Part shown: one piece after another, positions 526 through 46,563 of the stretch
How positions within the stretch are numbered: the first letter of the stretch is position 1
Layout of the letters: each line of letters starts with the position of its first letter
Source of the DNA: an uncultured Candidatus Saccharibacteria bacterium
GTDB taxonomy: Bacteria > Patescibacteriota > UBA1384 > CAYGGE01
DNA length: 64,000 nt
Reading direction: 5' to 3'
Assembly: GCA_964349485.1 (NCBI GenBank)
Contig: CAYGGE010000002.1
Location: forward strand, 5,737 to 69,736
Program-made: the position numbers and the translations under genes
The notes under the pieces: generated by a model
The model's input: the letters and a program-made list of their open reading frames with translations, nothing else
Told to the model about the DNA's origin: nothing
Databases searched by the model: none

Positions 526-712
526 ACGAGAACCATCATATGAATTATCAAACTACTTGACAGCGAAAATGTACATTGTTAGTATTAATTTAATGATTAC
601 CTTATTTGTTAGCCTCACGCTCATTGCCTTGACCCTCGTCCTTCGACAGGCGGGCAGTGCTTTGGTTAGCGTCAGGATACAATAATCCGATAAGCAACCA
701 GATGAGTAACAG

Positions 713-743
713 CCCGCCCTATAAGAAGGAGCGGGATTTTTTT
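713..743 (+). terminator. Putative intrinsic terminator after fpg
   Basis: CCCGCC...GCGGG stem followed by ATTTTTTT. Confidence 0.4.
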
Positions 744-968
744 GAGGCATAATGCAAATTAACAATCCGATAAAGAAGGGCTGCCAATTACTTTCTCGCA
801 ATAGAAGGTAACTGGCAGTCCTCCTTCCATCATCATAAAATCGAGGGCTGTAAACCTACGTGCTAGGAACGAGAACACCACTCTAATCCTAATTGCTTTG
901 CTACCAATAAGGCAAACCAGAGGGCTGCTCACCCACGAGGTGTGTTGTATGAGGTCACGTAGGTATCC

Positions 969-1042
969 AAGGCGGTAGATCTAACGGGAAAGGTCCTAGA
1001 GTTGAGGGCTCTAGTATGAAGGTTCGAATCCTTCCCGCCTTA
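969..1042 (+). tRNA. tRNA-like gene with a full cloverleaf and anticodon GAG (Leu-type anticodon). It is atypical: class I (4-nt variable region), A1:U72 and U14.
   Basis: Acceptor AAGGCGG/CCGCCTT. D-arm GATC/GGTC with GG in the loop. Anticodon stem TAGAG/CTCTA, loop TTGAGGG. T-arm GAAGG-TTCGAAT-CCTTC. Discriminator A. Confidence 0.5.
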
Positions 1043-1062
1043 TGACCGGTGGTCAGTAATCG

Positions 1063-1094
1063 GGGGAGCAAGTTGCTCCCCCGAAGGACTTTTC
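1063..1094 (+). terminator. Intrinsic terminator downstream of the tRNA-like gene
   Basis: GGGGAGCA-AGT-TGCTCCCC hairpin, then GAAGGACTTTT. Confidence 0.55.
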
Positions 1095-1124: not shown

Positions 1125-1300
1125 CGCGGTAATATTATTTGTATGATTCTAGCAATGTCACTACAAGTTTCACTCTACGTTAAGCACGCCTTCGTTCTCC
1201 CAAAATGGGACAGCGTGGCTTTAGTGGATGAAGGAGTGTAGTAACTTCGAGCAAACAGTTAAGACCACTAAGGCCCGCAGATCGAAGCGGGATTTTTGTT
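1125..1300 (+). ncRNA. Candidate small RNA of unknown family, bounded by an extended -10 promoter (TGgTATAAT 1116-1124) and a terminator (1274-1300)
   Basis: TGGTATAAT element. CCCGC-AGATCGAA-GCGGG hairpin plus TTTTTGTT. Only a 32-codon ORF with no RBS inside. Confidence 0.3.
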
Positions 1301-1326
1301 GGTTGAACGTTAAAATTGTCTTCATC

Positions 1327-1398
1327 GGAGTGTAGCTCAGAGGTAGAGCATTGCGACTGGGACGCAACGGTCGTCGGTTCAATTCCGACCACTCCGAC
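1327..1398 (+). tRNA. tRNA-Pro (anticodon TGG)
   Basis: Cloverleaf CGGAGTG/CACTCCG acceptor, anticodon loop ACTGGGA with G37, T-loop TTCAATT. C33 is unusual. The overlapping six-frame ORFs are spurious. Confidence 0.75.
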
Positions 1399-2740: not shown

Positions 2741-3499
2741 ATGCGTTCTATCAAAACTTCCGGTATCGTCATCAAACGAATCAATCTCGGTGAAGCAGAC
2801 CGACTGTTAACCATATACACGGCCGAAGTTGGGAAGGTTAGGGCGATAGCTAAAGGAAGTCGCCGAACACTCTCTAAGCTGGCTGGTCACCTCGAGCCAC
2901 TTTCATTAACAATCTTTGAACTACATGAAGGGAAAAGTTTTTTTGTGATTACCAGCGCTGATCTAGTGGCTGGTTTTATGGGGATTCAAAACGATCTCGA
3001 AAAGACAAGCCTTGCTTTTTATCTCCTTGAGATGGTCGATGTCTTAACGACCCATGATCATGCCCATGATGCCATCTTTGACTTACTTCGTGATGGTTTA
3101 ACCTTACTGGAGCAACCTGCAGAAACTGTGGGTACACGGTTATTTGTGGTGGCATTTATGTTGAAATTACTGGCCGAAGTTGGCTATCTGCCTGAACTCT
3201 CTCGGTGTGTAAATTGCCAGAAATCTTTGATGCCAGCAGGTAACTACTTTAGTCCGAGTCTGGGTGGGATTATCGATCCTTCATGTCGTCAAGAGGCTTC
3301 TGACCGACTTAAAGTGAGCTCAACAAGCATCAAAGCGATGCGTTTGTTCCTTAGCAGCTCCCTGTCTGTTGTATACCGCTGTACACTTTCTCCTGAAGTC
3401 CTCGATGAGCTCGAGTATATCATCGAAAGTAATTTGCAATATCATGTCGGTCGTGAATTGTACTCTAAGACATTTGTTATGAAAATTGCCAATGGTTAA
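2741..3499 (+). CDS. recO: DNA repair protein RecO
   Basis: N-terminal OB-fold motif LGEADRLLTIYTAEVGKVRAIAKGSRR. C-terminal Cys motif CVNCQK... Confidence 0.8.
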   Translation: MRSIKTSGIVIKRINLGEADRLLTIYTAEVGKVRAIAKGSRRTLSKLAGHLEPLSLTIFELHEGKSFFVITSADLVAGFMGIQNDLEKTSLAFYLLEMVDVLTTHDHAHDAIFDLLRDGLTLLEQPAETVGTRLFVVAFMLKLLAEVGYLPELSRCVNCQKSLMPAGNYFSPSLGGIIDPSCRQEASDRLKVSSTSIKAMRLFLSSSLSVVYRCTLSPEVLDELEYIIESNLQYHVGRELYSKTFVMKIANG

Positions 3500-7966: not shown

Positions 7967-8815
7967 ATGCACATACCTGTATTACTCAATGAAACTCTCA
8001 CAACTCTTTCACTGAAACCAGGAGATACCGTCATCGATTGTACACTCGGTGGCGGCGGCCACACCCAAGCCATGCTTCGGGTGATAGGTTCAGGCGGCCG
8101 TTTATTGGGCCTAGACATGGACGAGCGTACCTTAAATCAAACCGCAAAACGATTAGCGGGCTATCCAAATGTGAAATTAGTCGCTACACGCTTCGATCGA
8201 TTAGAAGAAGTTGCTAATGAACAGGGTTTCAGCCAAGTCGAGGCGATCCTCTTTGATCTCGGCATGTCGAGCATCCAGCTGGACGACAATGACCGGGGGA
8301 TAAGTTTTCAAGTCGATGCGCCACTGGATATGAGATTTGACCAGAGCGATACGTTGACTGGCGCAGAGATTATCAGAAGGTGGAGCGAATCTGAGCTTGC
8401 CGAGATCTTCTTCCGCTACGGTGATCTCTATGATGCTAAACGCTTTGCCCGAACAATAGTCGAGGCAAGACGTCAGCAACCGATTGAGACCACATGGCAA
8501 CTTGTTAACACGCTTGGACTAAAAAATCCTGGCGTTAAAGCCAAGCTGTTCCAAGCCTTACGGATTGCCACGAATGATGAGATGACGAGTCTCGAACAGG
8601 CGATTCCCCAGGCGGTCAGTTTGCTCAAGCCCGGTGGGCGAGTAGCGATCATCACTTTCCATTCACTGGAAGATCGGATCGTTAAACATCAGTTTCGTGA
8701 TAATCATCTGCTCAAGCTAGTTACCAAGAAACCGATCGTTCCGAGCCAAGAGGAGATTAAACAGAATACAAGAAGTCGCAGTGCGAAACTACGAGTCGCG
8801 CTGAAGGTTACCTAG
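7967..8815 (+). CDS. rsmH: 16S rRNA (cytosine1402-N4)-methyltransferase RsmH (MraW)
   Basis: MHIPVLLNETL start with RBS AAGGGAGAG. The SAM-MTase motifs are conserved. The longer upstream extension in the ORF track is unlikely to be real. Confidence 0.85.
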   Translation: MHIPVLLNETLTTLSLKPGDTVIDCTLGGGGHTQAMLRVIGSGGRLLGLDMDERTLNQTAKRLAGYPNVKLVATRFDRLEEVANEQGFSQVEAILFDLGMSSIQLDDNDRGISFQVDAPLDMRFDQSDTLTGAEIIRRWSESELAEIFFRYGDLYDAKRFARTIVEARRQQPIETTWQLVNTLGLKNPGVKAKLFQALRIATNDEMTSLEQAIPQAVSLLKPGGRVAIITFHSLEDRIVKHQFRDNHLLKLVTKKPIVPSQEEIKQNTRSRSAKLRVALKVT

Positions 8816-39033: not shown

Positions 39034-39109
39034 TGGTCAGGGTGGCGGGGCTCGAACCCGCGACCTCCGGACCCCCAGCCCGACGCGCTACCAACTGCGC
39101 TACACCCTG
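39034..39109 (-). tRNA. tRNA-Pro (anticodon GGG), CCA encoded
   Basis: Reverse complement CAGGGTG...CACCCTG-A-CCA. Anticodon loop CTGGGGG. Confidence 0.8.
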
Positions 39110-39477
39110 TTTACGAACTATACATTATTCGTTAATAACTATTAATTTGTACTGTAGCTCCGGTGAGCGAAATGCCGTTGGTCTCGATTGGTGCAAGGTT
39201 GCCTTTCTAGTTGCCTAGAAGTGTATCGGCAGAGACCGCCGATACGGTATTCCAGTCGCTCAGTCATAAAATAACCAAGAACCGGAAGTGGCGAACCGTG
39301 GGTGCCCGCACGTTTGGTCCACGGACCAAACAGATATGAGGCCGTATCATCCGCCTCTACGATATAAACGAGACGAACGATGACCCAGTTGCAAAATGTT
39401 GAAAGCCCAACGACAAATCGTCACCGAGAGCTATAGGTACTCTAGCATAAGTAGAACATGAATTAAAGGGAAATAAC

Positions 39478-40113
39478 CTAGAAAATGCCAGGACTGCCGC
39501 CACCCATAACTAGACCGTATACGGCTCGTGCCGGAGTGAAGATTAAGGTTTGTAGCAATGGAAAACCGGCGTAGGAGAGAACAATTAATCCGATCAGCAG
39601 ATAAGAGCCGTATCGCTCGAGGTGCAAGTAGGTCTCAAAATCTAAGAAAGTACCGAGGATCTTTGAACCGTCGAGGGGAGGGATCGGGATCAGGTTGAAG
39701 AACATCAAGATTAGGTTGTACCAAACTATTGTCTGGGTGAAGATCATGGCGATCGAGCCAGTTTCTGGTTGAAACAGATAATTAAAGCCAGTGAACAACA
39801 GTGCTAGCAACAGATTAGAGATGGGTCCGGCCAAGGCGACTTTCAAATTATCAACCATTGGATTGCGAAAATTGTTAGGATTGACCATAACTGGTTTAGC
39901 CCAGCCTACGCCGATGACTAAGATCATGATGGTGCCAATCGGATCGAGGTGGGCTAGGGGATTGAGGGTCAGACGGCCCATCGACTCGGCAGTGGGGTCA
40001 CCAAGTCTCTTGGCGATAAAAGCGTGGGCTGCTTCATGAATCGACAAAGCCATAACCAGTGCGATTGCCAGGATAACGAACAATAGCGGATTCTGACCTA
40101 GGAGCTGGAGCAT
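39478..40113 (-). CDS. M50 family (site-2 protease-like) membrane metalloprotease
   Basis: HEAAHAFIAKRLGDPTA HExxH motif. Polytopic. The start is taken at MLQLL with RBS GGAGG. Confidence 0.7.
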   Translation of the reverse strand: MLQLLGQNPLLFVILAIALVMALSIHEAAHAFIAKRLGDPTAESMGRLTLNPLAHLDPIGTIMILVIGVGWAKPVMVNPNNFRNPMVDNLKVALAGPISNLLLALLFTGFNYLFQPETGSIAMIFTQTIVWYNLILMFFNLIPIPPLDGSKILGTFLDFETYLHLERYGSYLLIGLIVLSYAGFPLLQTLIFTPARAVYGLVMGGGSPGIF

Positions 40114-40210
40114 GATGAGACCTCCATTCTTGCACTTATTGCTTCTGTATGATACCATAGCAACGTCGTCAGTCGAAATTACTCTGTTTTGTATCAAGCA
40201 AGGAAACTAC

Positions 40211-40432
40211 ATGAAAATGCCAATTCTTACTTTCCGTGATTACTGTGTGATCTGCGGTAAAGGCCCACAAATGGGGCTCAACCGGCCGCACTCCTTAAAG
40301 AAGACCAAAAAAGTTATCCGACCAAACCTTGGGGTCTGGAACAACCTCAATATTTGCGCTTCCTGCCGAAAGAGCCTTTCCAAGCCCGAACATATTAAAA
40401 AAGTTCAGGTTAAAGAGCCAACCGCCAATTAA
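40211..40432 (+). CDS. rpmB: Ribosomal protein bL28
   Basis: CVICGKGPQMGLNRPHSLKKTKKVIRPNL...CASCRK. Confidence 0.7.
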   Translation: MKMPILTFRDYCVICGKGPQMGLNRPHSLKKTKKVIRPNLGVWNNLNICASCRKSLSKPEHIKKVQVKEPTAN

Positions 40433-40457
40433 TCTAGTTCATTAGAAAATCGGCAAC

Positions 40458-40487
40458 TAAAAAATCCCGTTTGCACGGGATTTTTTA
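40458..40487. terminator. Bidirectional intrinsic terminator AAAAAATCCCG-TTTGCA-CGGGATTTTTT
   Basis: Read directly from the sequence. Confidence 0.6.
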
Positions 40488-40502
40488 GTTTGAAAAGCCT
40501 GA

Positions 40503-40877
40503 TTACTCTTCAGAGGTGTTGCTGGTTGCAGCATCGTCAGAGACGGGAGCTGGTGTAGCGGCAGGAGCTTCGCCTCGGTCTGCAGCTTGCTTCTGTCGGA
40601 AACAGTCAGCACACAGAACGTTGCTAGGATCGCGGGGCTCGAAAGGCACTTCACCCTCTGCACCACAGTTGGCGCAGGTGATTTTGTGCATTGTTCGAGG
40701 ACCACGATTGTCCCGGCCACCGGCACCACCGGCTTGCTTCTGCTCTTTAATCTTGCGTCGGCAATCGGCACAGCGAATTGGAGCAGAGAAGCCCTTGGAG
40801 TTGTAAAACTCCTGTTCGGATGCGGTCCAGACAAAGTCTGTGCCACAATCACGACAGGTAAGCGTTTGGTCTTGCAT
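40503..40877 (-). CDS. Duplicated zinc-ribbon protein (two Cx2C...Cx2C modules) with an acidic Ala/Pro-rich tail
   Basis: TCRDCGTDF...CADCRRK and TCANCGAEG...CADCFRQK. Locally elevated GC. Confidence 0.5.
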   Translation of the reverse strand: MQDQTLTCRDCGTDFVWTASEQEFYNSKGFSAPIRCADCRRKIKEQKQAGGAGGRDNRGPRTMHKITCANCGAEGEVPFEPRDPSNVLCADCFRQKQAADRGEAPAATPAPVSDDAATSNTSEE

Positions 40878-41259
40878 GGTTCATTTCACCTATTTCGGTT
40901 TAGTACCACGGAGGAAAATTTTCCAGGGGGTAATAACCATTTGTCTAAGGGGACTCGACGCACCCTACGGATTTTCCTACGGGGTACCCTTACAATGCCT
41001 AGATTATAGCAGAATGAGTTAGAATAGTCAATCGGTTAGTTACTCCATTGACAAAAACGGATATTTCATGCAGTATATGTTACGAACGAGCCACTCTCGA
41101 ACAGTACTCGTTTTTTGACGGATCGTCCGTCAAAGCGGTTTCCATAATATAATGACTGTAAAAAGCATTCAAGGGCAGATCGCGCCAACGTTGCGCGTGA
41201 GGGTCTACATCTACTAACACCCCCCCTAATAACACCTCCCTAACGGGACTCTCGATCTT

Positions 41260-41297
41260 CTGGGCCGGCCATTTCTGTGGCCGGCCCAGCTTTTTTC
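41260..41297 (+). terminator. Very strong intrinsic terminator (12-bp GC stem CTGGGCCGGCCA/TGGCCGGCCCAG plus CTTTTTTC)
   Basis: Read directly from the sequence. Confidence 0.6.
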
Positions 41298-41407
41298 TGC
41301 GAGCGATACAATCCAGAGAACTGTCCCTAACTTAGTGCGTATTATAGTCATTGGTAAATGTTAAGTGTGGTATAGTGTTTACTACTATTCGAATTTAGGG
41401 AGCATAT

Positions 41408-41722
41408 ATGGCGAACAAATTACTTTTCTCGACGCTTATGAATGTCTCTCTTGCAGGGCTCTATATTTTTGGCATCTCACAATTTCTCTTTTACGGTGAA
41501 AAAATTTTTAACGCAACTGAAGATAGTAATTTGGCACCATTCCTGTTGTTACTTCTTTTCTCCCTCTCAGCCGCCGTAGTGGGCAGTCTAATTTTCGGTC
41601 AGGCCGTCATTTTTTTCCTGGAAAATAAACGATTAGAAGGCATAAAATCAGCTTTTTACAGTATCGGTTGGTTATTCTTATTCACCCTCATCATCGTTGT
41701 GGCTCTAGTCTTGATTAAATAG
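41408..41722 (+). CDS. Small hypothetical membrane protein (3 TM)
   Basis: RBS GGGAG. Hydrophobic. Confidence 0.4.
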   Translation: MANKLLFSTLMNVSLAGLYIFGISQFLFYGEKIFNATEDSNLAPFLLLLLFSLSAAVVGSLIFGQAVIFFLENKRLEGIKSAFYSIGWLFLFTLIIVVALVLIK

Positions 41723-41763
41723 TTATCAAAAAAAGGACAGAGCAGTCGGCTGTGACTGCTCTG

Positions 41764-42630
41764 TCAGAGATATGGGTTTGGTGCGTCGTTGATCAGAACG
41801 TGCCCCTCGATCGTCCGAAGAAAATCGAGCAACTTTGGGTTATCATTCCCAAAGAAGTAGGTTTGACGACCTTCGTCTGTTATTCCCTCCATGAAGTGCT
41901 TTCCGGACTTTAGTCGTGCGATCACGTCGTCAAGGTAGTAAGTCCTCGAATGTTCGGCGTGGTGCAAAGGCTTATTATGCCGTATCTGTAGATGGAGGAG
42001 AGCGAACTCCGGCATATTAAATGTGTGGAAATAGATCTCTGTGCCCTGTGGCTCATCGATTCCATACACATTCGCAAGCTGATCGTAGACATGTTCTCGC
42101 AGTCGCTCGAGGCTGGTGACATCTGACGCCTCAAGATCGAGTGGTGTCGCCAGGTATCGTACACACAGCTCTTCTTCGATCTCTCGTATACGCAGTTGTA
42201 ACAGACGATCGACTGTAATCGGTCCATCCTGTGGATCATGGCGCAGGAAAGGCTCGATTGCCCTGTGCGCATGCCAGGCTACCAGTTCGAGCCGACCAGT
42301 GTTTCTCCAAGATCTCGCAAAGTTCTGGAAGAGAGTCTCAGGAGCGTACTTGGGTAAGTTTGGTCGGACGAAAAAGGCACCATCAGCAGTCCTGCTGAAC
42401 AAGCTTGGACACTGGTTGAGAAAATCCCGATCAACGGATGGCGCACCGTTGAGGAATTCTCTAACGAAGTCAGGGAGTCTTACCTGGTGGTAGGCAACCC
42501 TCAGATTCTCAAGGGTGTTGTCCGGAAACCGGACAATTTGACAATATGGTATACCGTAGCGATTATCCTTATTCCGGTTCATTGCCTTAGCTTTCTGGAC
42601 TAGTGTTATACGGGTCAGAACACCAAACAC
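41764..42630 (-). CDS. Hypothetical protein with Rx(4-6)H-like HEPN-type motifs
   Basis: HAHRAIEPFLRH and RHNKPLHH. No confident family assignment. Confidence 0.4.
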   Translation of the reverse strand: MFGVLTRITLVQKAKAMNRNKDNRYGIPYCQIVRFPDNTLENLRVAYHQVRLPDFVREFLNGAPSVDRDFLNQCPSLFSRTADGAFFVRPNLPKYAPETLFQNFARSWRNTGRLELVAWHAHRAIEPFLRHDPQDGPITVDRLLQLRIREIEEELCVRYLATPLDLEASDVTSLERLREHVYDQLANVYGIDEPQGTEIYFHTFNMPEFALLHLQIRHNKPLHHAEHSRTYYLDDVIARLKSGKHFMEGITDEGRQTYFFGNDNPKLLDFLRTIEGHVLINDAPNPYL

Positions 42631-42773
42631 TCTAGATTGTATATTCTGAGCGTGATAACAGCATATACTAGCTTACCTGACCACTTTAGTCAATGTATTG
42701 AGTAGGTCTTGTGCATGTTGTAAAATGACCTAACTAACAACAAAGGGTTGTTCATGCCTGAGAAGGAATAGAA

Positions 42774-43127
42774 ATGTACCTCGTGACAATTTCTGGTCTG
42801 CCGCTGGTTCTGACCTATGGTAGTGTAGCCAAGGATCTTGCAATGAAGTTGGTGCCAGAAGCAATCAAGATGCACGATCCTGAAGCTGAAGTTGTAGTCT
42901 TTGAACCTGCTGATCTTGTTCAATGGCGTCGCGGTGAGGTCATGATGTGTAGGATCGATTCTGACCGCTTCGATAACATCAGTCACAGACAGGCAGTGGT
43001 AAGTGCTGTCGCCGATGCATTTCGGGGCATAAGGAGTTCAATGATCAGTGATACGACCGAGCTTAAGACGTGTAAGGTCGTTATCTACACTGGTCTGCTA
43101 AACATCGATCTGGAAACAATTATCTGA
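42774..43127 (+). CDS. Hypothetical protein (117 aa)
   Basis: RBS-like AAGGAATAG. A GC hairpin follows downstream. Confidence 0.35.
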   Translation: MYLVTISGLPLVLTYGSVAKDLAMKLVPEAIKMHDPEAEVVVFEPADLVQWRRGEVMMCRIDSDRFDNISHRQAVVSAVADAFRGIRSSMISDTTELKTCKVVIYTGLLNIDLETII

Positions 43128-43407
43128 GGACAAAGGAGCCTTGCGTCCGGTGGCTGTAGCTACCGGACGAACTCGTTATATATGCAATATATTAGATTCT
43201 AAAGATAGACATATTTCAAAGAAGGTATCGGGGTAATGTCTGTACTCGTATTTTTGGCAGGCCATCGCCGAAATTGTTAGAACTCTTTGTACTAAGAACA
43301 CAGATCTCATAATTCCTGAGTTTGCGATAACTTAAAAGGCGACCCATACGAGGGGCCGCCCTGCCAGCTAACTGCTGGTGCAATATTTGATTATGTTGCG
43401 CCTACGA

Positions 43408-44220
43408 CTAGGCTGCGACGCTCAGTCCCTTCACGCGAGCCGGATCGAGCTTGCTGCCACCTTTGGGGAAGATGGTGGCGTAGCCGAGCATCAGCATGTT
43501 GAAGTGGATGCGGCCGTCACTGATGTTCTGCGGGACGGTGTGTTCGGCATTGACGGTCAGGCGGTTGATATGCCAGAGCTCCCACTCGCCGTTCTCGGGG
43601 TTAATACGAGCCGTCCACTCGCCTTCGATGATGACCTGGCCGTTCTGGATCTCCATGCTTTTGATCGGTCCGCGGTAGGCCACGCCGTCTTCGACAGACT
43701 CCAGATCGCCACCGATCAGATCGGTTCTGGCGAGCACCTGGTCCCAGCGAAGGTGAGCTGGGCCGCGACCCGTAGCGTTGGAGAGCATCAGGATCTCTTC
43801 GGGCGGATCCCAGCGATCCCGCACGCTCATCGTATCCTGAGTTTCCAGATACCGATAGGGGACGTAGACGGTCTTGCCGTGGGGCGGTGCCCAGAGGGTC
43901 ACTTCGGCCTGCTCGTTGTCGGTCGGATGACAGCCGCTGATGACGCCGTAGACCTCCTTGGGCTCGCCGTAGTAGATCCAACTGATCCAGACGATGGTAG
44001 CGGTGGTGCGCTTGGCCTCTTCAGCCTCCCGCTCCGTCCGTTCCCATCCTTCTTTCCAGGTCTGGAACTCGGCTTCCGAAACACGAAGGTGCTCGGGCCG
44101 TTCGTCCTTGATCATCTGGAAGCCCGCGAAGCGGCCTTCCCGACAGGCGGACTTGGCGAGATATTCCCGATCCCGCTTCTGTTCTTTTGCCCACTGGTTC
44201 TTCATCCATCGCTCGTTCAT
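43408..44220 (-). CDS. Hypothetical protein encoded in a ~62% GC segment (likely horizontally acquired)
   Basis: Strong RBS GGAGGAG before ATG. Trp/Glu-rich sequence. The +strand 285-aa ORF over the same span looks like an antisense shadow. A minus-strand hairpin terminator lies at about 43340-43375. Confidence 0.45.
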   Translation of the reverse strand: MNERWMKNQWAKEQKRDREYLAKSACREGRFAGFQMIKDERPEHLRVSEAEFQTWKEGWERTEREAEEAKRTTATIVWISWIYYGEPKEVYGVISGCHPTDNEQAEVTLWAPPHGKTVYVPYRYLETQDTMSVRDRWDPPEEILMLSNATGRGPAHLRWDQVLARTDLIGGDLESVEDGVAYRGPIKSMEIQNGQVIIEGEWTARINPENGEWELWHINRLTVNAEHTVPQNISDGRIHFNMLMLGYATIFPKGGSKLDPARVKGLSVAA

Positions 44221-44427
44221 CGGTCTCCTCCATAGGCCGTCATGGTGACGGCGGTAGCGAACGACTAAAGTATCGAATTAAAGAGCGCCAGAGGATAGAG
44301 GTAGTAATACTGCACCTCGATCGTGACGCAAAAGTATAGCATAAATCATCAGGTTTGTCAACCTGTTAAGAACTAAAAAACAGCGGTTCAGCTGTATCAG
44401 TTGAAATTCATATTTTTATAGAAGTGA

Positions 44428-44967
44428 TTAGCTTAGTAAGCGTTTAATTTCATCATGCTTCTCTGGGTGTTTTTCTAACCAAAGATGAACGCCTCGCTCT
44501 ACGTTTTCAGGGGTTGGAACATAACTAATAACATTCAGATTAGCGGGCTGGTTGATCGGTTCTGGATCGTACTTTCGTTTCAGCTTTAGGATAATTTCAA
44601 TAGCTCTAAGTCTAACAGTCCAGTCTATATCACTAAGATACTCATAGGTCTTAGCGCCATCTTTTTCAATGGCTGTGGCATTGATAGTTTTTGTTGCCAA
44701 TGTAGCGGCCTTTAGTAAGTCAGCTACCCACTTATCAGATAATCCTGATTCTTCTAGCTGATCTGAAAAATCAAGTTTTCTCAAGTTCTCGTGGCCTATC
44801 TGTGCTGCGCTTTCTCGACTAGTCACATCATAAGCTCTAGACGCTGCTTCTGTTGCATTCCTGGTCTCAATGTACTCTTTGACGAAGACATGTTCTTTGA
44901 TCGTTTTTGGAGGACGTGTAGACATGCTATTGTCGGGTCGCCACAGTGTGCTAGAGATCCACGACAT
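44428..44967 (-). CDS. Phage terminase small subunit-like protein
   Basis: HVFVKEYIETRNATEAASRAYDV...IGHENLRK resembles the Terminase_2/P27-type HTH region. Confidence 0.5.
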   Translation of the reverse strand: MSWISSTLWRPDNSMSTRPPKTIKEHVFVKEYIETRNATEAASRAYDVTSRESAAQIGHENLRKLDFSDQLEESGLSDKWVADLLKAATLATKTINATAIEKDGAKTYEYLSDIDWTVRLRAIEIILKLKRKYDPEPINQPANLNVISYVPTPENVERGVHLWLEKHPEKHDEIKRLLS

Positions 44968-45874
44968 TGTTAATAATGAGTGGGGTTATCGTACCAGGAA
45001 GCTGAAGAAAACGGGTGGTAAACCACTCCATCCCTCCATGCTCTACGACATGTTTAAGAACCCGCTTTACTATGGTCAAAACATCCGTCCTGATGGAACG
45101 GTCCACCAATGTGCCCATAAGACCATGGTGACAGAAGAGGAGTTTTGGCGAGCTCAAATCTTACTTGGCCGTAAAGGACGCACCCGTTCTAAAACCCACA
45201 CATTCGCCTACACGGGGTTAATTCAATGTGGGGAGTGTGGATGTGCCGTGACAGCCGAAGAGAAGCATAAGATCAATTTAAACGGTGGTATGCGGCACTA
45301 TATTTACTACCACTGCACGAAAAAGAAGCTCGATCACAAATGTACTCAACCATCATTTGAGCAAAAGGCTCTCGAGCGCCAAGTTGATGCCCAATTGGAG
45401 AGAATGGCGATCTCAGAGAAGTTCAAGGACTGGGCAATTAAATATTTAAAAGAAACCAGCGAAGATCAGATGAGTCAGTACAATCAAATTACCAAAACGC
45501 AGCAAAGCGCTTATGCTGATGTCGAGAAGAAGCTTGGCAAATTGCTTGATCTAAAACTGAACGAGCTCATAACCGACGAAGAGTACAAGACTAGTAAAGA
45601 ACAATTACTAGCCGAACAAGTCGGTATCGAAGAGCAACTAAAGGCAAATAAGTACAGCTCACATAATTGGATCGAACTAGCCGAAAAAACCTTTGATTTT
45701 GCCTGTCACGCCCGTTACTGGTTCCAAAATGGTACCCTTGAAGATAAAAAAATAATCCTTCAAACCATCGGAGGATCGAACCTCTCGCTGAAGGACAAAC
45801 AACTACGATTTGAACCAGATAATATCTTCACTGTGCTGGCAAATCGGGACAAAAATTCGGATTGGCAGGGGTAG
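44870..45874 (+). pseudogene. Large serine recombinase remnant. Recombinase domain, Zn ribbon and coiled coil are present. The N-terminal resolvase catalytic domain is missing.
   Basis: ...GYRTRKLKKTGGKPL..., CGECGC...YYHC zinc ribbon, C-terminal coiled coil. The stop overlaps the tRNA-Trp 3' end. Confidence 0.6.
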
Positions 45875-45936
45875 AAGGAATCGAACCCTCGTATCAGGTT
45901 TTGGAGACCTGCGTTCTACCATTGAACTATACCCCT
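45863..45936 (-). tRNA. tRNA-Trp (anticodon CCA), CCA encoded
   Basis: Reverse complement AGGGGTA...TACCCCT-G-CCA. Anticodon loop CTCCAAA. Confidence 0.75.
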
Positions 45937-45938
45937 GT

Positions 45939-46001
45939 GCTAGCTATCTGGTAGCTAGTTGTCTGGTTTTTATACCTAACTAGACAACTAGATTACTAGA
46001 C
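45939..46001 (+). repeat. Copy of the CTAG-containing intergenic motif with inverted repeat CTAGTTGTC...GACAACTAG
   Basis: Read directly from the sequence. It lies between tRNA-Trp and rpmG. Confidence 0.4.
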
Positions 46002-46003
46002 AT

Positions 46004-46171
46004 CTATTTAACTTCTTTATGTGCAGTGGTTTTCATGCATTGTGGGCAGTATTTTTTGAGTTGCATGCGATCCGTACCAGAGTTGATCTTATTCTTACTG
46101 GTTCGATAATTAGCCCGACCACATTCTGGGCAGGATAACGAAAACTCGAAGCGGTTACCTTTTTTAGCCAT
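46004..46171 (-). CDS. rpmG: Ribosomal protein bL33
   Basis: MAKKGNRFEFSLSCPECGRANYRTSKNKIN...KKYCPQCMKTTAHKEVK. Not in the ORF track because it is under 60 aa. Confidence 0.8.
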   Translation of the reverse strand: MAKKGNRFEFSLSCPECGRANYRTSKNKINSGTDRMQLKKYCPQCMKTTAHKEVK

Positions 46172-46257
46172 ATGAACTCCTAGAGATAATAACGCATATT
46201 ACTTAATAGATTATGTGGGGCTATGGTACTTCTCGTCGCATAGCTCCTCGAAGCAAG

Positions 46258-46333
46258 TGGAGCCACCTGTCGGATTTGAACCGACGACCCGCTGTTTACA
46301 AAACAGCCGCTCTGGCCACTGAGCTAAGGTGGC
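46258..46333 (-). tRNA. tRNA-Thr (anticodon TGT), CCA encoded
   Basis: Reverse complement GCCACCT...AGGTGGC-T-CCA. Anticodon loop TTTGTAA. Confidence 0.75.
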
Positions 46334-46334
46334 A

Positions 46335-46409
<75 letters not shown>

Positions 46410-46477
46410 ATTTTTGCAAATGAAGCAAGAAAGTATCAAACATCTCACAGGGGTAGCTTCTCACCAATTCGCCGATA

Positions 46478-46563
46478 TGGTGCCGGGTGAAGGATTCGAA
46501 CCTCCGTAGCCCGAAGGCGTCAGATTTACAGTCTGATGTAATTGGCCACTCTACCAACCCGGC
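46478..46563 (-). tRNA. tRNA-Tyr (anticodon GTA), class II with long variable arm, CCA encoded
   Basis: Anticodon stem-loop TCAGA-CTGTAAA-TCTGA. Variable arm CGCCTTCGGGCTACG. Confidence 0.75.

Follow-up and report, generated by a model that had tools for sequence, protein, structure and literature searches.

The locus raises a simple question: when a leucine anticodon, GAG, is found on the body of a class I tRNA with a short variable region, is the gene an unusual tRNA, a tRNA-derived element or a pseudo-tRNA? These were the three options left by the initial annotation of the 64,000-nucleotide stretch of DNA analysed here (the window). The interest of the case lies both in the rarity of class I tRNAs with leucine anticodons in bacteria, and in the unusual island of genes in whose company this one is found. 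This analysis favours an unusual tRNA, with the island context keeping the other two options alive.

A complete cloverleaf with a leucine anticodon

The gene occupies 74 nt of the forward strand (969-1042), and is recovered by ARAGORN, by Rfam and as a minimum free energy fold. ARAGORN, which finds seven tRNAs in the window, names it tRNA-Leu(gag), and the Rfam model RF00005 covers it from end to end (model positions 1-71 of 71) at 44.5 bits, above the gathering score of 29 bits, with E-values of 3.4e-6 in a search of the whole window and 6.3e-8 in a local search. Both tools therefore pass the gene through the tRNA-finder check that had been proposed for it, at a score that is the lowest of the seven window tRNAs, the other six reaching 58-72 bits in Rfam. 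The minimum free energy structure of the same 74 nt is itself a cloverleaf (-27.5 kcal/mol, z=-2.4), in which all 21 stem pairs are intact, one of them being G.U.

Read from the 5' end, the acceptor stem AAGGCGG/CCGCCUU sets A1 opposite U72 and G3 opposite C70, with A73 as the discriminator; U8, A9 and C26 can be read from the sequence; the D-stem GAUC/GGUC, with one U.G pair, closes a 10-nt loop (UAACGGGAAA) that supplies U14, A15 and G18G19, with A15 paired to U48; and the anticodon stem UAGAG/CUCUA carries the loop UUGAGGG, which gives U33, the anticodon G34 A35 G36, and G37. The variable loop, GUAU, has 4 nt, or 3 nt if a C26:G44 pair is counted, and the T-arm, GAAGG-UUCGAAU-CCUUC, has a canonical T-loop. 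No CCA is encoded, and a U directly follows the discriminator. Every structural feature that the initial annotation had listed is thus borne out, from the complete cloverleaf with its canonical T-loop and D-loop GG, through the leucine anticodon and the 4-nt variable region, to A1:U72, U14 and A73.

Set against the core positions of a tRNA (U8, A14, G18G19, A21, U33, R37, T54-Psi55-C56, A58 and C61), the gene has all but A14, which is replaced by U14; in the fold, this U14 could pair with A21, extending the D-stem to 5 bp. Of the disrupted stems or loops that would mark a pseudogene, U14 is the sole aberration, and no stem has a mismatch. Type II tRNALeu have a variable arm longer than 10 nt that forms a stem-loop, where this gene has the four nucleotides GUAU, yet the leucine anticodon with a 3' G37 that also marks type II tRNALeu is present in the loop UUGAGGG. 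Four assemblies made independently for one organism carry the gene without a single difference, and the window is 100% identical to contigs in the ENA, NCBI and Logan metagenome assemblies. The feature is confirmed as a genuine, structurally complete tRNA cloverleaf. The combination of class I body and leucine anticodon had been called atypical for bacteria, which it is, though not without precedent, as the type I tRNALeu(CAA) of Streptomyces coelicolor has the same combination (PMC6614811).

A hypervariable junction between fpg and an NTP-transferase gene

The gene order across the locus is fpg, the island, an NTP-transferase gene, recO, a CAP-domain gene, glyS and mraZ, and Candidatus Berkelbacteria supplies the nearest named homologue of the Fpg protein (46% identity). 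The 3' portion of an rRNA operon is located about 6 kb 5' of the window; in it, a group I intron bearing an ORF for a LAGLIDADG endonuclease splits the 23S gene (L001 1-3229), after which comes the 5S gene. Such an intron, like the Fpg match, suggests a probable member of the CPR/Patescibacteria.

Relatives were defined as a clade by Fpg homologues of 60-78% identity, and 11 of their loci were compared, making 12 species together with the window. The order of fpg, the NTP-transferase gene and recO is constant in these 11 loci wherever their contigs reach. The spacer between fpg and the NTP-transferase gene varies from 56 nt to 2.9 kb across the 12 species, and its content, which includes non-homologous orphan ORFs, is unrelated between species save for a few cassettes. 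tRNAs are found at this junction in four of the 12 species, namely the window and the relatives at loci L125, L134 and L132, with eight of the 11 relatives having none. The window has the GAG tRNA and a tRNA-Pro(UGG); L125 has a tRNA-like gene and tRNAs with GAU and UAU anticodons; L134 has a tRNA-like gene, a GAU tRNA, a Pro-like tRNA with the loop UCCCAAG and a UAU tRNA; and L132 has a Pro-UGG tRNA without the D-loop GG, and an 87-nt tRNA-like RNA. The junction is therefore a hypervariable island of RNA genes. The comparison with related genomes that the initial annotation had proposed finds an orthologue of the GAG tRNA at none of the 11 related junctions.

Wider searches were equally negative. 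Three pattern scans of IMG/VR viral contigs returned no relative of the GAG tRNA, and pattern scans of JGI metagenomes returned none with the exact anticodon arm and T-loop, and none with the loops fixed and the stems free to vary. BLAST against GenBank phage genomes gave only generic tRNA-Pro matches or T-arm fragments, BLAST against E. coli genomes gave no match, and the rest of the window holds no second copy or relative. A scan of reference-genome contigs for TTGAGGG-N12-14-GGTTCGAATCC was discounted as a source of relatives: the 120 matches listed all lay inside class II variable arms, with no class I GAG tRNA among them, and belonged to tRNA-Ser(UGA/CGA) in all but one case, which was a tRNA-Leu(CAA). 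As no relative was found in the data searched, the GAG gene has no covariation or conservation in its support. As far as accessible data go, which here means the related junctions and the viral, JGI, phage and E. coli sequences searched, the gene appears to be specific to one species, and is a rare curiosity rather than a conserved new system.

An origin of the island in a phage or other mobile element was also considered and set aside, as the locus has no integrase, the orphan ORFs have no PHROG match, and the flanking direct repeats are short and at chance level.

Small transcription units around the GAG tRNA

The forward strand on either side of the GAG tRNA is occupied by compact transcription units. 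The first (557-745) comprises a promoter (557-585), a hydrophobic ORF of 30 codons (593-685) and a terminator (713-745), and is homologous to L134 1660-1870 and L125 7320-7530. Between this unit and the tRNA leader is a stable long hairpin (773-826; ~20 bp, -29.6 kcal/mol, z=-7.9), which includes the 11-bp stem-loop that had been placed at about 779-818, and which is larger than was then described. The 3' arm of this hairpin overlaps a weak sigma-70-like promoter candidate on the forward strand, CTGGCA-18-TAAAAT (812-841), with 9/12 matches in a consensus scan; it is the only promoter candidate for the GAG tRNA, and would start transcription ~120 nt 5' of it. The tRNA leader (849-968, forward strand) is closed by an inverted repeat, 849-862 with 956-969, the second arm of which reaches the 5' end of the tRNA, but the fold of the leader is no more stable than those of shuffled sequences (z=-0.2), making its structure uncertain.

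Immediately 3' of the tRNA, a forward-strand mini-hairpin that begins with the U just after the discriminator, UGACC-GGU-GGUCA (1043-1055), folds with 5 bp, and a similar one, GGCCA-GUU-UGGCC, lies 3' of the tRNA-like gene in both L125 and L134. It is followed by a G+C-rich, terminator-like inverted repeat of 11 bp (1060-1084, forward strand; fold z=-4.6). This had been taken for a hairpin terminator, of which the hairpin itself is present, but its T tract is weak, consisting of TTTT at 1089-1092, 6 nt further on, and it is not among the calls of a terminator scan of the window. At the equivalent position, both L125 and L134 have a canonical terminator.

The next forward-strand unit opens with the motif TTTTCCACA and a strong promoter, TTGACA-17-TAATAT (1090-1135; 10/12 matches in a promoter scan), both invariant in the window, L134 and L125. 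These precede a small ORF of 28 codons (MSLQVSLYVKHAFVLPKWDSVALVDEGV; 1155-1241, forward strand), or 29 with the stop, the length of which is kept in the same three species. Non-synonymous differences between the three exceed synonymous ones, so the ORF can be regarded as putatively coding only; it is paralogous to that of the 593-685 unit. The unit ends, still on the forward strand, at an intrinsic terminator, CCCGC..GCGGG followed by ATTTTTGTT (1274-1300), called by the terminator scan and invariant in the three species. Beyond it is the second island tRNA, tRNA-Pro(UGG) (1326-1398, forward strand; called by ARAGORN and given 63 bits by Rfam), which has C1:G72 and A73, and again no encoded CCA. 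An orphan ORF of 127 aa (1483-1866) begins just 3' of this tRNA, and a 171-aa reading of the same frame, from a start at 1351, would overlap it; with no match in Pfam or PHROG, and nothing homologous to it in the corresponding spacers of the relatives, it may not be a real gene.

The small units form a paralogous set, with two in the window (557-745 and 1107-1300), two in L134 (1660-1870 and 2673-2885) and two in L125 (7320-7530 and 8288-8498). In every one, a CTTGACA-17-TAnnAT promoter precedes an ORF of ~29-31 codons, which leads into a GCCCGC..GCGGGATTTTTGTT terminator. The ORF of the 557-745 unit (MITLFVSLTLIALTLVLRQAGSALVSVRIQ) would encode a hydrophobic sequence resembling a transmembrane segment, and on that basis looks like a type I toxin or a small membrane protein. 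An interpretation of 1107-1300 as an sRNA was dropped in favour of a small ORF, because three species preserve the 29-codon frame and the unit has a peptide-coding paralogue. The products of these units may be small peptides or sRNAs. On the minus strand, three promoter-like sites (1132-1173) face back over the small-ORF promoter towards the hairpin at 1060-1084, which could end transcription in both directions; an antisense RNA, comparable to those of type I toxin-antitoxin systems, is possible.

The island tRNAs are a class apart

None of the 11 tRNA or tRNA-like genes in the islands of the four species encodes CCA, compared with all five of the core tRNAs in the window (Pro-GGG, Trp, Thr-UGU, Thr-GGU and Tyr, at 39034-46563), and this absence sets the island tRNAs apart as a class. 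Precursors without an encoded CCA undergo RNase Z-type 3' processing, followed by CCA addition, both of which the island tRNAs would need. As RNase Z prefers a U after the discriminator, the T/U at this position in nine of the 11 island genes fits such processing of CCA-less precursors.

The quality of these genes varies widely. The tRNA-like genes of L125 (8115-8188) and L134 (2500-2573) differ from each other at 1 of 74 nt, and combine normal acceptor, D and T arms with a long stem, ending in a loop of 4 nt, in place of the anticodon arm. That of L132 (7765-7851), at 87 nt, resembles them in its normal acceptor, D and T arms, but its "anticodon" arm is branched. The tRNA with the UAU anticodon, corresponding to the Ile codon AUA (L125 8864-8936 and L134 3228-3300), is well formed, and only its loops differ between the two species. 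It carries G3:U70 and A73 with an Ala-like D-arm, and the G3:U70 acceptor pair is the identity mark of AlaRS; from its sequence, it could be a miscoding tRNA that inserts Ala for Ile, or an unusual tRNAIle2. The GAU tRNA, in which a G73 accompanies the GAU anticodon, has two stem-breaking changes in L134, on a contig with only 4x coverage. In the Pro-like tRNA of L132, the D-loop GG is gone and the T-stem is mismatched; L125 has no Pro copy, and the window copy is intact. The Pro-type tRNA of L134 (3150-3221) has C1:G72 and A73, but ARAGORN assigns it as Trp(cca). Its loop UCCCAAG matches the normal tRNAPro(UGG) loop, CUUGGGA, exactly in reverse complement, and so looks like a hairpin inversion; the contig has ~4x coverage. 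A similar inversion was considered for the GAG tRNA and rejected, as its anticodon hairpin is canonical in the present orientation (U33, G37), and the reverse complement would give C33.

Several island genes are consequently unable to decode normally, these being the tRNA-like genes of L125 and L134, the 87-nt gene of L132 and the Pro-type gene of L134. Nevertheless, the intergenic DNA surrounding the island genes is ~78% identical between L125 and L134, and the island tRNAs are far better conserved than these flanks, which argues that island genes can be under selection. The order of elements 3' of the GAG tRNA (mini-hairpin, hairpin, TTTTCCACA, promoter, small ORF and terminator) is the same as that 3' of the tRNA-like gene in L125 and L134, placing the GAG tRNA in the slot equivalent to that gene. 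The likeness between the two RNAs is no better than generic tRNA similarity. A nearest-neighbour comparison with the 175 tRNAs of the fetched loci was uninformative, most of that set being tRNA-Ser. Between the small-ORF terminator and the GAU tRNA, L134 (~2907-3055) and L125 (~8520-8665) also share a ~150-nt imperfect hairpin (-81.7 kcal/mol, z=-6.7; ~92% identical between the two; no Rfam match), possibly a palindrome of the MITE type, or else a structured RNA.

Which amino acid would the GAG tRNA carry?

The codons that the GAG anticodon would read, CUU and CUC, make up 615/16,719 codons (3.7%) and sit on conserved Leu columns of Fpg, and the genetic code is standard for both, with each read as Leu. 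Bacterial LeuRS does not read the anticodon, and recognition of the GAG tRNA would therefore depend on its body. The identity rules applied for the other synthetases were G3:U70 for AlaRS, positions 72 and 35 for ProRS, position 35 for ArgRS, and position 36 for ValRS, IleRS and PheRS. By these established rules, the GAG tRNA lacks the mark of AlaRS, having G3:C70, those of ProRS, having U72 and A35, those of ValRS, IleRS and PheRS, having G36, and that of ArgRS, having A35. The adjacent bases G36-G37 form a TrmD substrate motif typical of CUN-reading tRNALeu.

The identity set of E. coli LeuRS comprises A73, A14, A15:U48, G18G19-U55C56 and U54-A58 (PMC6614811). The GAG tRNA has all of this set except A14, which is replaced by U14. 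This substitution counts against charging, since LeuRS takes A14, or the U8-A14 pair, as an identity element both in E. coli and for the two tRNALeu types of S. coelicolor. In the latter species, a single LeuRS charges the type I tRNALeu(CAA), whose variable loop is 5 nt long; loop length and U8-A14 are both important for this charging, which the leucine-specific domain of the enzyme enables (PMC6614811). The GAG tRNA departs from the S. coelicolor type in both respects, having a 4-nt loop and U14. Leucylation is therefore plausible, though probably impaired. The window does not encode LeuRS, no synthetase gene adjoins the GAG tRNA, and no partner protein is evident nearby, the neighbours being fpg, the NTP-transferase gene and recO. 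The frequency of CUY codons means that charging with Leu would make the tRNA harmless and useful, and that charging with any other amino acid would be costly.

Weighing the explanations

The explanation we favour, while holding it only tentatively, is that the GAG gene is an accessory, lineage-specific, CCA-less type I tRNA that is charged by LeuRS and delivers Leu to CUC and CUU codons. A precursor of ~250 nt would be transcribed from the weak promoter near 812-841, with transcription ending at the 1060-1084 hairpin; RNase P would cut at A1, an RNase Z-type endonuclease would cut after A73, the CCA-adding enzyme would complete the 3' end, and TrmD would methylate G37. LeuRS would then charge the tRNA through A73, A15:U48, G18G19 and U54-A58, with U14 probably making this inefficient, and the charged tRNA would read CUC and CUU as Leu, beside or in place of a canonical type II tRNALeu. 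This explanation is favoured by the agreement of two independent detectors and by a loop competent for decoding, in contrast to the visibly damaged Pro-like tRNAs of L132 and L134. It is weakened by U14, by the lowest Rfam score in the window and by a D-arm unlike that of tRNALeu, as well as by the lack of an orthologue in the 11 relatives, and by the tRNA-like RNA, devoid of an anticodon loop, that fills the same slot in L125 and L134.

A different history, rather unlikely on balance, is one in which the gene is a young, redundant tRNA copy of no lasting function, duplicated or acquired into a recombination hotspot, with an anticodon or body that has drifted, and now decaying as its neighbours in the sister species are; it may still be transcribed, with little or no part in translation. 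In its favour, the gene occurs in only one of the 12 species, and the content of the junction is wholly replaced between them, at lengths from 56 nt to 2.9 kb. The Pro-like island tRNAs also look like one family at differing stages, from the intact window copy, through those of L132 and L134, to L125, which has none. The GAG gene shares the lack of an encoded CCA that separates the island from the five core tRNAs, in addition to its U14 and low Rfam score. Yet its 21 stem pairs are all intact, as are its loop signatures except for A14, and it has its own trailer hairpins within a conserved cassette layout, while other RNAs of the island are under purifying selection, judging by L125 and L134. 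The tRNA-like genes of L125 and L134, almost invariant without an anticodon arm, and that of L132, with its branched arm, imply that selection on the island can maintain the form of a tRNA in the absence of an anticodon, and the elements 3' of the former recur in unchanged order 3' of the GAG gene. It is conceivable, if quite improbable, that the GAG RNA too does not decode. It might then be a module for processing or stabilising the island transcripts, a decoy or substrate for some toxin or enzyme that binds tRNA, or a donor of aminoacyl groups to a non-ribosomal reaction, with the GAG incidental. However, an RNA of this sort would not be expected to keep a fully canonical anticodon arm, with a 5-bp stem, a 7-nt loop, U33 and G37; its resemblance to the L125 and L134 tRNA-like RNA is at the generic level, and no partner protein is evident nearby.

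If the GAG tRNA does decode, its body, unlike tRNALeu in class, D-arm and U14, could suit another synthetase, which would place a different amino acid at CUC and CUU, as deliberate or tolerated mistranslation of the kind attributed to tRNAProX. The sister islands do mix bodies and anticodons (UAU on G3:U70 and A73, GAU with G73, and a Pro body with a CCA-reading loop), and natural mistranslating tRNAs exist in bacteria (PMC10404621). We nonetheless regard this dual identity as extremely doubtful: G3:C70, U72 and A35/G36 leave no other synthetase's identity set recognisable; no synthetase gene adjoins the tRNA, whereas tRNAProX is normally encoded with ProRSx (PMC10404621); and, with CUY at 3.7% and on conserved Leu sites, efficient miscoding would be highly toxic. 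A more speculative, and very unlikely, proposal takes the whole junction, across this CPR clade, to be a cassette array that makes and keeps non-standard tRNAs, CCA-less and with anticodon and body no longer matched. Such RNAs would serve miscoding, either programmed or conditional, or would act as decoys or substrates in a conflict system aimed at tRNAs, and the interleaved small hydrophobic ORFs would belong to the same system. The uncoupled examples are the GAG anticodon on a non-Leu class I body, UAU on an Ala-type acceptor, a Pro body with an inverted loop, and tRNA shapes without anticodons. An accessory tRNA charged with Leu is still the reading that we prefer, with the reservations set out above.

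Comparison with known systems

Whichever reading holds, this locus illustrates that a "tRNA-Leu" named from its anticodon can mislead. A gene that is decaying, or that does not decode, would show the birth, drift and death of tRNA genes in a recombination hotspot. The plasmid tRNA cluster of Anabaena PCC 7120 and the tRNA arrays of mycobacteriophages are likewise made up of extra tRNAs, often CCA-less and in part aberrant or pseudogenes, that are located in variable or mobile DNA and are redundant with the core set. By comparison, the island described here is tiny, with two tRNAs in the window and two to four in the relatives, is interleaved with units of promoter, small ORF and terminator, and has no integrase, phage or plasmid signal. 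The tRNAProX and ProRSx system of Streptomyces offers a parallel for the same mismatch of anticodon and body, for a patchy, strain-specific distribution, and for annotation by anticodon alone (PMC10404621). However, tRNAProX keeps G72 and A73 and has its own ProRSx, whereas the GAG tRNA has U72, A73 as its sole Pro element, and no adjoining synthetase.

The closer parallels are with tRNALeu of type I. Those of animal mitochondria are class I, have A73, and are substrates of a bacterial-type LeuRS that ignores the bases of the anticodon, but they are organellar, with reduced D and T loops, whereas the loops of the GAG tRNA are canonically bacterial save for U14. The type I tRNALeu(CAA) of S. 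coelicolor (Fan et al., NAR 2019, PMC6614811), compared here by its published description, likewise joins a leucine anticodon to a short variable loop, and coexists with type II tRNALeu in the same species; its charging by the single LeuRS means that bacterial leucylation can do without the long arm (PMC6614811). The GAG tRNA differs from it in anticodon (GAG rather than CAA), in loop length (4 nt rather than 5 nt) and in having U14 in place of the U8-A14 pair, as well as in lacking an encoded CCA and in belonging to another phylum, probably within the CPR rather than the Actinobacteria. If the GAG tRNA is charged with leucine, the case bears on how reduced CPR genomes, whose tRNA sets are often judged incomplete, are annotated, and the gene would represent the second bacterial lineage known to have a short-arm tRNALeu after that of S. 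coelicolor, and the first with U14, widening the substrates known for bacterial LeuRS and bearing on the rules of tRNA identity.
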